Sequence record: KY295893.1 | Origin: Escherichia phage vB_EcoP_D | Length of the DNA: 44,931 bases | Reading direction: 5' to 3' (one strand) | Part shown: positions 3,150-32,096 of the stretch, piece after piece | Layout of the letters: each line of letters starts with the position of its first letter | Position numbering within the stretch: the stretch's first letter is position 1 | Translations under genes and position numbers: made by a program | The notes under the pieces: model-generated | Told to the model about the DNA's origin: nothing | The model's database searches: none | The model's input: the letters and a program-made list of their open reading frames with translations, nothing else

Positions 3150-3316
3150 TGGACCACCAGTTGTGCTCTAACACAATCCATAATGTAACGCTTCACTTCA
3201 TCTACGATTAATTCTTCGTGAGTCTTAGTCACCTTCGGAGAAGAAGGCTTGAGAATCATCTCAAGCATCTCCATACCCTCAAATGAAATCGTCGGTTTCT
3301 TCTTCGTCTGTACCAT
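3146..3316 (-). CDS. hypothetical small protein (start uncertain)
   Basis: Track ORF 3146..3328 begins at an apparent TTG; first ATG at 3316 lies inside the upstream gene. Weak RBS. Confidence 0.25.
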   Translation of the reverse strand: MVQTKKKPTISFEGMEMLEMILKPSSPKVTKTHEELIVDEVKRYIMDCVRAQLVVQ

Positions 3317-3494
3317 AGAGTTCTTCAACCTTCTCTTGGATAGCTTCTACAGAAAGACCAAGCTCTTCTGCATCAGCTAGTAAGGTATATGGCACTTCCA
3401 TGCCACAGGATAAAGTTTCAAAGATAGCTTCTGCTACCTCAACTGCACGAGTTGCCTTCATGCTATCAAAAGAAATCTGGTTCATCTTTGTCAT
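3279..3494 (-). CDS. hypothetical acidic protein
   Basis: 71-aa ORF with acidic C-terminus (EEETDDFI), packed between ligase and GNAT genes. Confidence 0.4.
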   Translation of the reverse strand: MTKMNQISFDSMKATRAVEVAEAIFETLSCGMEVPYTLLADAEELGLSVEAIQEKVEELYGTDEEETDDFI

Positions 3495-4413
3495 GTCTTA
3501 ATTCTCCAGCTTTGGGCAGACGAATGTTGCCCTTGCTTGAATCCTGAAGACCTTTTACTTCAAAGATTTTACCAATGACATTCAATCGTCCACCGTGTTT
3601 AATATCGTGGAACATCTGTTCTGCATCTGCATGAGTCCACCCTTTACCTAACATAGCTTTGATTGTCTTTCCTCCTTTCCATTTGAAAATGAGGTTAGCT
3701 ACCTTACCTTTGTACTTACCTTTGCCTTCTTCAAAGCCAATACAAGTAAGGTCATAAGTTACCTTACGGACTTCTTTAGTCTGACGATAACCTTTGTGGC
3801 CTGCTTCATAATCACAGTCCAGTTTAAACACAGCACCCTCTCGGCCTGCGTCTATTTGCTCTTGCGCAAACGCTTCAACTTCTCGCTCATTATGGCAAGG
3901 AGTAATAGGAAGGATAGCGTTGTACCCGCTAAGATGAGCGCCGATGCGACGATGTAAAGCATCGTAACGTTTGAGATAAGAAACATCAGTGAATCCATCA
4001 TGGAATGCCTTAATAGTTAACATATCGAAGAAGTCAATATACAGGTTGTCTTTAATCTGCTGGCCTATGAAATCAAGTGGCTCTGTGCGATTAGGGTTAA
4101 CTACTCCAGAAAGTGCTTCAAGGTAGACATCAACAGCCATAGATTGCAACTCACCGAGATAAATGCCAGTAGGGAAAGCTGAATAAGATTCTTCCAAGGT
4201 TTCCGTGTTAGCCAGTTTCTTTCCAGTGCGTCCAAAGACACCAACGACACCATCGTTGCGAACAACCACAGCACTAAATATCCCATCTCGTTTTACCTGT
4301 GCATAACATGGAAAAGTTAATTTCTTCTCAGGTACTTCACCGCGATGTTTCACCAGCATGAATGGGTGATTGCGGTGGTCTTCTGGAAGACCTAGGAATT
4401 GGAAGATATTCAT
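3466..4413 (-). CDS. ATP-dependent DNA ligase
   Basis: 315-aa ORF with the adenylation motif KxDG (KRDGIF); strong RBS GAAGGAGGTGAA before ATG 4413; size matches T7 gp1.3-class ligases. Confidence 0.8.
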   Translation of the reverse strand: MNIFQFLGLPEDHRNHPFMLVKHRGEVPEKKLTFPCYAQVKRDGIFSAVVVRNDGVVGVFGRTGKKLANTETLEESYSAFPTGIYLGELQSMAVDVYLEALSGVVNPNRTEPLDFIGQQIKDNLYIDFFDMLTIKAFHDGFTDVSYLKRYDALHRRIGAHLSGYNAILPITPCHNEREVEAFAQEQIDAGREGAVFKLDCDYEAGHKGYRQTKEVRKVTYDLTCIGFEEGKGKYKGKVANLIFKWKGGKTIKAMLGKGWTHADAEQMFHDIKHGGRLNVIGKIFEVKGLQDSSKGNIRLPKAGELRHDKDEPDFF

Positions 4414-5106: not shown

Positions 5107-5129
5107 TTGTTCTATAGTGTCAACTAAAT
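5107..5129 (-). promoter_or_regulatory. phage RNAP promoter, SP6-type subclass (ATTTAGTTGACACTATAGAACAA)
   Basis: Minus-strand 23-mer matching the SP6 consensus ATTTAGGTGACACTATAGAAGAG at 17 of 18 positions from -17 to +1; predicted +1 G at 5112; intergenic, upstream of 4585..5055. Confidence 0.6.
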
Positions 5130-10617: not shown

Positions 10618-10640
10618 TCCTTCTATAGTGTCCAGTAAAT
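10618..10640 (-). promoter_or_regulatory. phage RNAP promoter, main subclass (ATTTACTGGACACTATAGAAGGA)
   Basis: Minus-strand consensus match; +1 G at 10623; lies in the 370-bp intergenic region downstream of DNA polymerase. Confidence 0.6.
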
Positions 10641-28242: not shown

Positions 28243-28350
28243 TACATCTCCCTTTCCATTGAGCTAATAAGTCCGAGTAGTTCTTCCAGTCATCATAGTT
28301 GCCATCCTCGGCAGCTTGAGCAACCATGCGCTCGCACCATTCAATACATC

Positions 28351-28695
28351 TTACCATCGTGCACATCCCTCTCTTACATCAATGTGGGTGAAATTAGGAT
28401 AAGACCCAATGCCATATTTATTGGGGTAGCGTGCTGTTAGATAGGACCATACACGGTAAGGTGTAATACCTTGTACCTTAATGTCAGCAGCCTTACCAGT
28501 AAGATGCATGGAGTTCTTAGCACCTCCCACATTAGCATTGTGCTTAGCACAGCGGTGTCCAGAAGTAATAACTACAGGAGCACCAAAGTGCTCACGTACA
28601 TCTGTGACTACCTGTAGTAACTCAGCATCTACTGTGGATGTACCGCACCCACAACGGCAAGCGAACTCACGGCGCTTGAAGTGTTTGTTAAGCAT
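28351..28695 (-). CDS. endolysin, peptidase M15 family (L-alanyl-D-glutamate peptidase-like)
   Basis: 114 aa from ATG 28695 (MLNKHF, RBS GAGG); SGHRC...D...H zinc-peptidase signature (VVITSGHRCAKHN, HLTGKAADI, FTHIDV); track start 28764 is GTG. Confidence 0.75.
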   Translation of the reverse strand: MLNKHFKRREFACRCGCGTSTVDAELLQVVTDVREHFGAPVVITSGHRCAKHNANVGGAKNSMHLTGKAADIKVQGITPYRVWSYLTARYPNKYGIGSYPNFTHIDVREGCARW

Positions 28696-28715
28696 TATTG
28701 ACCTCGTCTTTACAA

Positions 28716-29003
28716 TTAAGCCGCAGGTGTTACAGGGTCCGACTCCATAGTAGTTGCATCCCACTTGTCGGTGGGTTCACTCCCACGTGCAATAGCGATG
28801 TACAAGGATTGGTTTGTTTTCTCTACAGCAACCATGGCGCCTTTCTGTTTACCAGAGAGGTGTTTAATGTTGATAGGATGATCTTTCTTCTTAAGGTCTG
28901 CTTCAGCAACAATAGGCAAAGGGATTGCCGTTGCAGTGGTTTGTCCAGTTTTTACTCGAAAAGCCTGACCAGTAACAGTACCTGCGGTTCCATATTTAGA
29001 CAT
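28716..29003 (-). CDS. hypothetical protein, paralog of 29016..29294
   Basis: 95-aa ORF, RBS AGGAGAG; shares SGKQKGAMV...IAIA block with the adjacent gene. Confidence 0.5.
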   Translation of the reverse strand: MSKYGTAGTVTGQAFRVKTGQTTATAIPLPIVAEADLKKKDHPINIKHLSGKQKGAMVAVEKTNQSLYIAIARGSEPTDKWDATTMESDPVTPAA

Positions 29004-29015
29004 GTAACTCTCCTC

Positions 29016-29294
29016 TTAAGCTGGGTAAATAGTAGTGACCGCTTTATTAGCTGTCAACCAATTGGAATCTTCTTTGCCATCAACTGCGATAGCAATAACC
29101 AGGTTATCATGTGTATCAAGACACACCATGGCCCCTTTCTGCTTACCTGATTTGGTGGCATCATTAATAACATCACCTTTCTTCTCAACAGTGTCCTCGT
29201 AAACTACAGGAAGCATCAGGGCTTCACTCACAGGTTGTATCTGCTTACGAGCAGACTTACCTGTAAGGGGTTGTGTACTATAACTATTAGACAT
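29016..29294 (-). CDS. hypothetical protein, paralog of 28716..29003
   Basis: 92 aa from ATG 29294 (MSNSYSTQ, RBS AGGAGAGAGA); track start 29354 is GTG. Confidence 0.5.
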   Translation of the reverse strand: MSNSYSTQPLTGKSARKQIQPVSEALMLPVVYEDTVEKKGDVINDATKSGKQKGAMVCLDTHDNLVIAIAVDGKEDSNWLTANKAVTTIYPA

Positions 29295-29427
29295 TCTCTC
29301 TCCTATTATGTAAGTATAGTAAGGAAGTAAGGAATAGGGTGTACAGGAGTACACCCATACTAAGGAATACCTATATAACCTAGGTTAACCTATATTATCC
29401 TTGTTATTTCTCTTATTATCTGGGCCT

Positions 29428-29450
29428 TCCTTCTATAGTGTCCGGTAATT
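29428..29450 (-). promoter_or_regulatory. phage RNAP promoter, main subclass (AATTACCGGACACTATAGAAGGA)
   Basis: +1 G at 29433; overlaps the terminase stop codon; upstream of the paralog pair and lysis genes. Confidence 0.55.
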
Positions 29451-30180
29451 AATAAGTCCTTGAAATCCTTGCAGAAAGTGTATTTCTGCTTGCCGATTTA
29501 CTCCTGTAATTCTGACCGTATACTCTTTGCTGCATAGCCACGGAAGTGTTGGTTACTCTTCGCTCAGTGCCATAATCTCCATAGAGCATTGCCCTACGGA
29601 GGTGAGGTGTGTTCATAGCTTGGATATAATCGCGCATCTCCTGCGCTCTGAGGCGATTAATCCGTGTAACCTCGTCATAGTCTATCTGAGAAGTTAATTG
29701 CCGTATAGCGCCATACAGCGCGTCTAAGCGGTCATCGTGCCGGAGGCTGTTCTTCTCAATCGTGATGTTCGACATTTGATTGAAAAGGCTGTATGACATG
29801 CGTAGTTCAAGCGGATAGTGCTGTACCGACTCAAAATCAGACTTGACCATCTCTGCGTTGAAGATGAGCCTGTGGGCCGCCATTAGTGGCTCTAGTGTTT
29901 CAATGATACGCAACTCTTTCTGTCCGGTGGCGTAATCTTCCTCCAGAGTCACAGGCCACTCTCGTTCAAAGTATGGCTTTATAACGGCCTCAAACGCGCC
30001 ATGACCAAAGTTCTTTTCAATGAATACCTCTTTAACACCTGCCTGCTTTGCGGCCTGCACAATGCGATTCAGGGACGATTCGCGGTATCCTCCCGGCACA
30101 CCAAAGCACTGATACACATAAATGAATGTGCCGTGCAGGAAGACGATAGCCACACCCGTTTCATCCCCATTCTTACCTCC
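29449..30180 (-). CDS. terminase large subunit, exon 2 (nuclease domain)
   Basis: Encodes GGKNGDETGVAIVFLHG... and a downstream HDDRLDAL acidic motif; in frame with exon 1 after removal of 30181..30926; spliced product ~633 aa. Confidence 0.75.
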   Translation of the reverse strand, partial: GGKNGDETGVAIVFLHGTFIYVYQCFGVPGGYRESSLNRIVQAAKQAGVKEVFIEKNFGHGAFEAVIKPYFEREWPVTLEEDYATGQKELRIIETLEPLMAAHRLIFNAEMVKSDFESVQHYPLELRMSYSLFNQMSNITIEKNSLRHDDRLDALYGAIRQLTSQIDYDEVTRINRLRAQEMRDYIQAMNTPHLRRAMLYGDYGTERRVTNTSVAMQQRVYGQNYRSKSASRNTLSARISRTY

Positions 30181-30706
30181 CGGTTTGAACGTGACGTGCG
30201 AGCCAACCCTTGTGGTGTTTACGTAAACCATGTGCCACCTTACGCATATTCTGAGGTGTTAGGTTGTGCTCTTTACAGAAGTCAGTAATGCAAGTTACAA
30301 GAAACTCTTCACCATCTGGAGAAGTGAATATGTAATCTTTGCCAGTACCTTTGTTGTAAGGTGTCATGCCTTTCTTGAACTCAGTGGCAACAGACAAGTG
30401 CTGTCCTTTCTTGATTTCAGTGGCAATACTTATGCGTTCACCTTTCTCGATGTTACCTGCTTTGCGATAACCACCTTTACCCTTATTCCAACCCATGTTG
30501 TCATGTGGGCGTAGCTTCTCTTCTAGTGCATAACACTCTTCTTTGCTACCAGTGAATAAGATAACGTACTCGCGGCCATCACAAAGACGGCCTGCACACT
30601 TGTGCTCTCTCATACGCTTCTTAATATCGGAGGTTACACCAATATAACCTTGCATTACATCAGTTTCACCAACAACACGAATATGATAAACTTTATGCTC
30701 TGTCAT
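30173..30706 (-). CDS. GIY-YIG homing endonuclease, intron-encoded
   Basis: 177 aa, RBS AAGGGAG; N-terminal KVYHIRVVGETDVMQGYIGVTSDIKKRMREH fits the GIY...YIG...R...E pattern, followed by repeated basic GxxxxxxxIATExKKG segments; stop codon lies 6-8 nt past the predicted 3' splice site. Confidence 0.85.
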   Translation of the reverse strand: MTEHKVYHIRVVGETDVMQGYIGVTSDIKKRMREHKCAGRLCDGREYVILFTGSKEECYALEEKLRPHDNMGWNKGKGGYRKAGNIEKGERISIATEIKKGQHLSVATEFKKGMTPYNKGTGKDYIFTSPDGEEFLVTCITDFCKEHNLTPQNMRKVAHGLRKHHKGWLARHVQTGR

Positions 30707-30926
30707 ATTTAACTCCCTTCAATTGTTACGTTAATTCGCTACTTTAACTTCTACTAGTCACCTAGTAGGTCGGACTATATCTTAGGCTTGCGCCTCCCTC
30801 TGTTTCAGACCGCTTGGCCTTACAGTTAGTCTCTACACGTTCCTGTTATTGCAACAGGCTTCGCTCGGTATTGTCTCAGTGAGAGTTCCACCGAATTAAG
30901 AGGGTTTTACGCTGGCAGAGGTGTTT
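30181..30926 (-). mobile_element. group I intron in the terminase large-subunit gene
   Basis: Intron RNA contains matches to the group I core elements: P-like AAUUCGGUGGAA (30886..30897), Q-like AAUACCGAGC (30863..30872), R-like GUGUAGAGACUAAC (30825..30838), S AAGAUAUAGUCCG (30771..30783). Predicted P1 pairs exon GCUGGU with GCCAGC (30911..30916) with a U.G at the splice site; predicted P10 pairs exon 2 GGAGGU with ACCUCU; last intron base is G. Confidence 0.75.
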
Positions 30927-32096
30927 ACCAGCGGGGTCAATGTACATAATTTTACGGGTGACAGCGCCCCATTCATACGGTCGGGCCACAGGGCGATACA
31001 TAAAGTCTGTAGGCTTATTGCCATACTTCGGTGCATCGCCAATGATGTTAATAGAGTCGTTGCTCCATGTAGGCATCACAGGGACTTCCTCTGTACCGAA
31101 TGAAGTGAAGATGAGGTTGTTCAGGCGTAGCGGATAGCGGTCAGCATCCATCATGCGAGTGTTAAGCATAAACTGAAGCTGGAACTTAGCCGCACCCTGC
31201 GAGATTTCCTTCTCAATCAGCACATCATCATCATACATTTCAGGTGCACAAGGGGCACCACTATTGCCATCCAAGCCATACCCTGAGCGAAGTGCTGGGT
31301 TGTCCTTCATATCCTGCACAATCATAGGTGCAAGGAAGTCGCCATAGCATTGCTCCTGCTCCACTGAGGGATAACGTGCAGTCCAGATACGAACAGAGTA
31401 ACCACGAGCAGGTAGGTTATTGTAGATAGAGTTTACGTTCTGAGGAGTACCAAGGTAGATAATATCACCAAACTGGTTAATAGATTCAAACTCCTTGGTC
31501 AGTTCCTCAAGCAAGGCACGTCCTGCCGCTGTACGAGCATTCTGCATTGACTCAACGTCATCTGCTAGGATGATATCTGCACGCGCACCCTGCATACCTG
31601 CTTCGATTGAGTAACAAGACACAGAAGGCGACTTGTCACTGCCACGTAGGGTGTAATGAATCTCAAATGCCTTAACTGAGGCACGGTCCCCTGCGTAGAT
31701 GTCCGGTAGCATAAACTCAAGAAAGTCTAGGCCACGGAAGATTTTAACTACCCAACCTGCGATTTCCTCTGCTCGCTTGGCGTTTTGGGATACAACCATG
31801 ATACGCTTATGCGGTTCATGAATGATACGGAATACTGTATAGATTGCTGATAGTGTTGTCTTAGCGATACCACGAGGCGCTTCGATGAGGCGATACTTGT
31901 GTCCGTAGAATAGGAACTTCAAGATATCAGCCTGCATACGAATCAGATGAGGGTTGCCTGCAATTAAGTTATGAATAACTGTGTCTGCAAAGAGAAGCAA
32001 ACCTTCCGCTGTGTAAGGAAAGGTCTGCTGTAACTCCTGTAGCATCTCCCATCTGGCAAGAGCCTCCGCTTGTGATTCTCTTGCCTTAGCCATCAA
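30927..32096 (-). CDS. terminase large subunit, exon 1 (ATPase domain)
   Basis: Encodes 390 aa up to ...KIMYIDPAG; track ORF continues 16 codons into the intron to a stop (...KHLCQRKTLLIRWNSH). ATG at 32093 follows an in-frame TTG at 32096. Confidence 0.8.

Follow-up and report, generated by a model that had tools for sequence, protein, structure and literature searches.

Here, I propose that gp41 and gp42, two small paralogous proteins encoded next to each other in Escherichia phage vB_EcoP_D (sequence record KY295893.1; the window, here and below, is the whole stretch analysed, 44,931 nucleotides), are subunits of a small module on the virion surface, most probably a trimer-like capsid decoration (minor capsid) protein of the T=7 head. 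The proposal is backed by indirect evidence and has, in my estimate, about an even chance of being right; I infer each of its elements, namely the virion location, the capsid rather than the tail, and the trimer geometry.

The paralog pair and its apparent transcription unit

Over positions 28300-29500 the window shows 100% identity to Escherichia phages vB_EcoP_C and vB_EcoP_R and 98% to phage K1E; by its sequence it is assigned to a K1E-like Vectrevirus (Autographiviridae, Molineuxvirinae). All genes treated here lie on the minus strand. In transcription order the map runs from the small terminase to the large terminase (40A, intron, 40B), gp41 and gp42, followed by endolysin, holin and spanin, then gp46 and the endosialidase tailspike. 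The gp41-type paralog (K1E gp41; ORF of 92 aa) occupies 29294..29016, coordinates including the stop codon, and the gp42-type paralog (K1E gp42; ORF of 95 aa) 29003..28716, both on the minus strand; the second exon of the large terminase, ending at 29449, immediately precedes them. A first, sequence-only reading of this DNA had pointed to adjacent paralogous genes of 95 and 92 aa after the terminase; both ORFs are indeed present, on a strand that it had left unstated.

The large terminase pieces of the window are 40A (32096..30876, minus strand) and 40B (30231..29449, minus strand). The gene is split by a group I intron (30751-30999, minus strand; Rfam RF00028, 61 bits, E = 3.5e-13), which carries a homing-endonuclease ORF (30173-30706, minus strand); in the K1E record the pieces are annotated as 40A, 40.5 and 40B. 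At the other end of the pair, the mechanically called ORF of the M15-type endolysin (28351-28764, minus strand) has a GTG start and overlaps the end of gp42; the K1E annotation (345 nt, 114 aa) and the sequence both indicate that translation really begins at the ATG at 28695. A plus-strand ORF opposite gp41 and gp42 (28698..29150, 150 aa) was dismissed as a shadow ORF, nothing having been found in its support.

The pair is preceded by an exact match to the core of the SP6/K1E-type phage RNA polymerase promoter, GGACACTATAGAAGGA (29428..29443, minus strand), which lies 5 nt past the stop codon of the large terminase and leaves about 135 nt to the gp41 start codon. Allowing up to 3 mismatches, the window contains 9 matches to the promoter core, every one on the minus strand, where chance would give 0.34; in 19 of the related loci the first paralog likewise has the core upstream of it, at a distance of about 147-187 nt. 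The matches to the core GACACTATAGAAG are located at 5107, 8703, 9849, 10618, 14353, 15201, 27755, 29428 and 32279 (all minus strand); among these nine sites, the full 16-base query is matched at 10618 and 29428 only. Between promoter and gp41, an 8-bp stem closed by a TCCT loop, GGGTGTAC-TCCT-GTACACCC, can be read from the sequence at 29337..29356 (minus strand). A hairpin is kept 60-74 nt upstream of the first-paralog start codon in K1E-like, SP6 and Kp7-like loci, and its stem sequence changes compensatorily between these phages: SP6 has a different self-complementary 8-bp stem (GGGAGGTA/TACCTCCC), and Kp7-like loci have the stem GGGTACTC/GAGTACCC. Such a hairpin in the 5'-UTR could affect mRNA stability or processing. 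Given a consensus promoter and a hairpin ahead of it, the gp41-gp42 pair appears to have its own late transcription unit. Each gene is also provided with a strong ribosome-binding site, as had been noted before: the Shine-Dalgarno sequence AGGAGA at 29304..29299 for gp41 and GAGGAG at 29015..29010 for gp42 (both minus strand, read from the sequence).

When one protein is compared with the other by BLASTP, gp41 and gp42 share 32 identities over 81 positions (40%; 57% positives; E = 6e-13), and their global identity is 37%. The central block SGKQKGAMV, followed by IAIA, on which the claim of paralogy had been founded, is real, and the pairwise alignment carries the homology beyond these motifs to residues 1-81; the similarity is neither below significance nor confined to low-complexity sequence. 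Across 33 diverse orthologs aligned together, gp41 and gp42 types alike, 16 columns are invariant (M1, T11, G12, R16, K18, P30, N45, S50-G51-K52-Q53, A56, M57, A72, W81 and P93), among them a T-G pair in the N-terminal arm, an N...SGKQ..AM block and a single tryptophan. Both proteins are under purifying selection, the median pairwise dN/dS across 21 loci being 0.32 for gp41 and 0.23 for gp42. In the window their isoelectric points are 5.7 (gp41) and 9.3 (gp42); a charge complementarity between the two was considered and rejected, for it is not kept among orthologs.

Copy number, fusions and attached modules

Both proteins match family PHROG 2725 over their full length (gp42, E = 2.8e-46; gp41, E = 3e-40), with 87 cluster representatives for gp41, at 56-97% identity, and 98 for gp42. 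By tblastn, 186 phage records carry the family, their hosts including Escherichia, Klebsiella, Salmonella, Proteus, Vibrio, Pseudomonas, Erwinia, Pectobacterium and Aeromonas, among others; the records examined are Autographiviridae, and all those listed are 38-47 kb in size. The locus is fixed, just after the large terminase gene. Scanned with an HMM, 32 related loci and the window together have one copy in 4 cases, two in 16 (the window and K1E included) and three in 13. The Kp7-like Klebsiella phages have three copies, with a C-terminal Ig domain on the third; in phages like Citrobacter CrRp3 the third copy measures about 236 aa, and the three copies of Pectobacterium phage PP1 are about 95 aa each. 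SP6 carries, besides genes 41 and 42, a shortened third copy, 42.3 (3298-3543 of locus L003; 81 aa), which matches profile positions 9-62 only and may represent the third, display-domain-bearing gene in decay.

The sequence-only reading had regarded the local duplication as unusual for a compact phage genome. This does not hold: the two paralogs have diverged to about 37-40% identity, and across several lineages of Autographiviridae more than 100 phage genomes have them in tandem, so that, judged from sequence comparison, the paralog array is ancient and normal for this lineage. The copy-number comparison with related phages that it had recommended leads to the same answer, as it is usual to find two or three paralogs in tandem, or else a fusion of three repeats, and the two copies of the window are ordinary for K1E-like phages.

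A profile search of 1.8 billion representative proteins returned 210 relatives at E <= 1e-3, which fall into three classes: (i) stand-alone proteins of about 85-100 aa, (ii) proteins of 256-319 aa with exactly three tandem domains, and (iii) proteins in which an N-terminal domain is joined to other modules. Many of the 210 belong to the second class. The genes of the second class are found at the orthologous locus, directly downstream of a T7-type large terminase, in 44.8-kb podophage contigs. Each fusion protein has three stretches matching the profile (E = 4e-34 for the representative P0185), and the repeats of P0185 are 33-38% identical among themselves, which is near the global identity of gp41 and gp42. 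When type-specific HMMs (gp41, gp42 and third-paralog) were run on the fusion repeats, the broad type-C model won almost everywhere, and no repeat-by-repeat orthology with the separate genes emerged. On one of the contigs bearing a fused gene, a metagenomic one of 44.8 kb, a Tad2-like gene (PF11195, anti-Thoeris family; L033 10141-10410) lies about 1.3 kb downstream of it.

The joining of three repeats in one chain at this locus suggests that the products of the separate genes work together. Because the fusions have exclusively three repeats and are predicted with confidence to form a compact fold, a three-subunit unit, and a physical association of the tandem products, can be argued. The AlphaFold2 model of P0185, built with 35 homologs, reaches a pLDDT of 89.5 and a pTM of 0.85, and indicates a single compact body in which the arms between the repeats are also predicted to be well ordered; a three-fold packing is suggested solely by the pTM and by the repeat count of three. 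The model of gp42 (alignment A1) has a pLDDT of 68.5, with residues 1-19 below 50, and its predicted core, at about residues 30-85, comprises a short strand, two short helices and three beta strands.

A further variant of the locus is a hybrid gene whose N-terminal half is that of gp41 and whose C-terminal half is that of gp42, the two meeting in the SGKQKGAM block. In the K1E-like phage that carries it, present in two independent metagenome assemblies (L037 1632-1919; L038 1023-1310), no other copy stands between terminase and endolysin, and the make-up of the gene suggests recombination between the paralogs. The replacement of the pair by a hybrid fits interchangeable subunits of an accessory structure. 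Likewise, the single-copy and hybrid variants imply that homo-oligomers also work, which suits such a structure.

The third class of relatives indicates where the family may act. In 11 of the 11 long single-domain matches listed, the domain starts within the first 20 residues. Third paralogs such as Kp7_47 and P0274 have a C-terminal Ig domain (Pfam Ig_3, I-set), which in Kp7_47 is homologous to that of T5 pb10 (8zvi, E = 6e-17; 5lxk, E = 2.8e-16) and matches PHROG families named 'Hoc-like head decoration', as well as Ig-bearing tail-protein families. Other relatives carry the Sf6-type trimeric tail-needle knob PF16532 (E = 1.7e-30 and 5e-43), and P0306 bears a phi29 head-fibre segment, PF11133, at 26.5 bits, just above the cut-off of 24.6. 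The short C-terminal tails of P0299 and P0301 have a helical look, judged by eye. Going by these domain matches, all the attached modules are of the kind found on the outer surface of phage particles.

A more direct lead comes from Klebsiella phage Kp7 (GenBank ON148527), in which Kp7_45 and Kp7_46 are named 'minor capsid protein' and Kp7_47 'minor capsid protein with Ig-domain'. The three match the gp41/gp42 profile (E = 3e-23, 1e-21 and 3e-14, respectively) and lie at the equivalent locus, downstream of the large terminase gene and ahead of the endolysin; Kp7 has three paralogs, the third with an Ig domain, where the window has two bare ones. The capsid label is the depositors' unpublished annotation, and no publication behind it was found in the literature. 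Other cryo-EM and crystal entries for Kp7 are present in the PDB and are cited there as unpublished. Entry 7y3t, comprising seven chains of a 'phage major capsid protein' from a phage that I could not confirm, matches the major capsid protein of the window (E = 3e-155); no chain homologous to the gp41/gp42 family occurs in the PDB, 7y3t included. A literature search for virion proteomics or a density map of gp41/gp42 homologs in K1E/SP6-like phages returned none, and the published accounts of UAB_Phi78, ACG-C91, PP99, KP34, Kp34likevirus, the Pantoea phages and Ar-KM contain no such proteomics or density for the family.

Weighing the alternatives

Concerning the way in which the pair might work, a core of about 60 residues with a conserved N-terminal arm (T-G-[KQ] motif) would form a three-subunit base docking on the capsid lattice. 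The three-fold sites of a T=7 lattice fall into three classes. For K1E-like phages, the two bare paralogs alone would make up the base, whether by mixing in one trimer or by forming separate homotrimers at different quasi-equivalent sites; in relatives the third paralog would contribute an Ig domain or a knob that serves display or adhesion. The role would be an accessory one, in particle stabilisation, surface adhesion or both.

The capsid is, however, not the only part of a particle on which such a base could sit. Ig and knob domains occur on tails too, and in BFVD the proteins whose N-terminus matches the domain by fold carry annotations as pectate lyase (603 aa), SGNH esterase (558 aa) and 'tail fiber' (225 aa), which could equally mean tail attachment. 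It is conceivable, then, that gp41 and gp42 serve at the tail or neck, forming a trimeric anchor or adaptor to which fibres or spikes attach, the more so as the Sf6 knob is a tail-needle module in its founding member and the Ig domain matches PHROG families annotated as tail proteins. Yet the family persists across tail types, from the tailspikes of SP6 and K1E to the T7-type tail fibre genes of the contigs with fused genes (L033, L035), and its persistence despite different tail appendages argues for a partner conserved across lineages. Moreover, the depositors of Kp7 annotate a tail adaptor and tail fibres separately and still name the family genes capsid, and bare paralogs of 92-95 aa have no distal module to anchor. 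A place on the tail or neck is quite unlikely. That the two are not structural at all, but late proteins helping in assembly or packaging, accessories of the lysis cassette or anti-host factors, is an unlikely reading as well; their position between the terminase and the endolysin-holin-spanin genes and a fairly relaxed dN/dS (0.23-0.32) would fit it, whereas fusions to Ig, trimeric knob and head-fibre modules are typical of extracellular proteins of the particle surface, gp41 and gp42 are devoid of transmembrane or signal features (GRAVY -0.3 to -0.4), and Pfam and NCBIfam recognise no enzymatic domain in either. The sequence-only reading had offered virion or anti-host factors as the possible nature of the products; on indirect evidence, the former is the part of that suggestion to be favoured, and nothing supports the latter.

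Two further readings originate from database matches. Residues 16-64 of gp41 weakly resemble GroES (PDB 4v4o_O, E = 1.7; NCBIfam NF001539, E = 0.024, 14.7 bits), and the protein is of similar length, which would make the pair co-chaperonins in the manner of T4 gp31; but 14.7 bits compare with a family cut-off of 122 bits, gp42 has no such match, and the fusions are of three repeats while GroES is seven-fold. With a profile match below the family threshold, the GroES/Cpn10 reading is effectively refuted and must be held very improbable. The other is the name under which the family circulates. PHROG 2725 and many RefSeq phage records, e.g. genes 41 and 42 of NC_007637, are labelled 'acetyl-CoA acetyltransferase', and the same name appears in the annotation table of UAB_Phi78 (PMC4837284). 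The database label is the one thing in favour of such an enzyme, the chance of which is next to nil. The label is untenable because the proteins, of 92-95 aa, have no thiolase domain: Pfam and NCBIfam scans of gp41 and gp42 gave nothing usable, with no family at E <= 10 in Pfam and no thiolase in NCBIfam, and searches of the PDB with each protein and with profiles A1 and A2 gave no homolog by sequence. Thiolases are about 390 aa long, with an N- and a C-terminal thiolase domain and a catalytic Cys/His/Cys triad. Protein size and the absence of any thiolase domain refute the acetyltransferase reading, and the name is, on the sequences at hand, a propagated misannotation.

Known decoration systems and the place of the family

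On the preferred reading, that of a trimer-like capsid decoration protein, the functionally closest systems would be the trimeric decoration proteins lambda gpD, T4 Soc and phage L Dec, together with the phi29 head fibre. The proposed action of gp41 and gp42 is like that of lambda gpD, T4 Soc and phage L Dec, in that they would be small, probably non-essential proteins that trimerise on the capsid lattice with an N-terminal arm ordered on assembly; the phi29 head fibre, gp8.5, enters the comparison through the segment borne by P0306. Fold similarity to lambda gpD, T4 Soc, phage L Dec and the beta-tulip decoration folds was looked for and was not found. T5 pb10 and T4 Hoc combine an N-terminal particle-binding part with C-terminal Ig display, as does the third paralog of the relatives; the window proteins are not of this type of anchor plus Ig domain, no Ig domain being found by Pfam in gp41 or gp42. 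The N-terminal domain of pb10 has no sequence match to the family domain, and pb10 is not among the fold-search matches listed. It binds as a monomer at hexon centres, and compared with the monomeric pb10 the gp41/gp42 family looks trimeric.

The phiKMV-like phage Ar-KM offers another point of comparison. Its gp54 and gp55, a small paralogous pair from the Autographiviridae located on the T=7 capsid by cryo-EM and LC-MS/MS, share a head-binding N-terminal core, and one of them has a variable, outward-facing C-terminal domain (bioRxiv 10.64898/2026.05.18.726046). Unlike the gp41/gp42 family, which is predicted to be mainly beta and three-fold, they are helical dimers forming four-helix bundles; they are to be taken as an analogue, not shown to be homologous. 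The same preprint mentions the decoration proteins gp47 and gp48 of Shigella phage Buco (bioRxiv 10.64898/2026.05.18.726046), for which I draw no link to the family, as no PDB chain matches it. As none of the systems compared is homologous to the anchor domain, the family would be structurally new within a known functional kind.

A broader formulation, which I advance tentatively and as possible rather than probable, is that PHROG 2725 represents an undescribed fold family of capsid decoration proteins of Autographiviridae, able to build a three-fold base from one gene, from two or three tandem genes or from one three-repeat chain, with a single plug-in position for display domains (Ig, TNF-like knob, enzymes). 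One gene would then give a homotrimer, and tandem genes may give a mixed trimer or site-specific trimers, one for each class of three-fold site in the T=7 lattice. If this were true, the family would amount to a natural modular capsid-display system.

To sum up, the gene pair of the window is ordinary for K1E-like phages, and the family to which it belongs is uncharacterised, mislabelled across databases and structurally unmatched, with a clear series from split to fused genes. Giving up the acetyltransferase name, if that conclusion is true, would correct a misannotation that RefSeq and PHROGs have carried to a large share of about 190 matching phage records. If the decoration role is confirmed, a new structural family would be added to the phage decoration proteins, along with an unusually clear series between tandem subunits and a single-chain pseudo-trimer. 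Therapeutic phages of the K1E, SP6 and KP34 types would gain a probably non-essential, high-copy surface site, at which nature already displays Ig and knob domains and which would lend itself to phage display or engineering. The retention of two or three copies of a "hypothetical" gene in such compact genomes would be explained as well.
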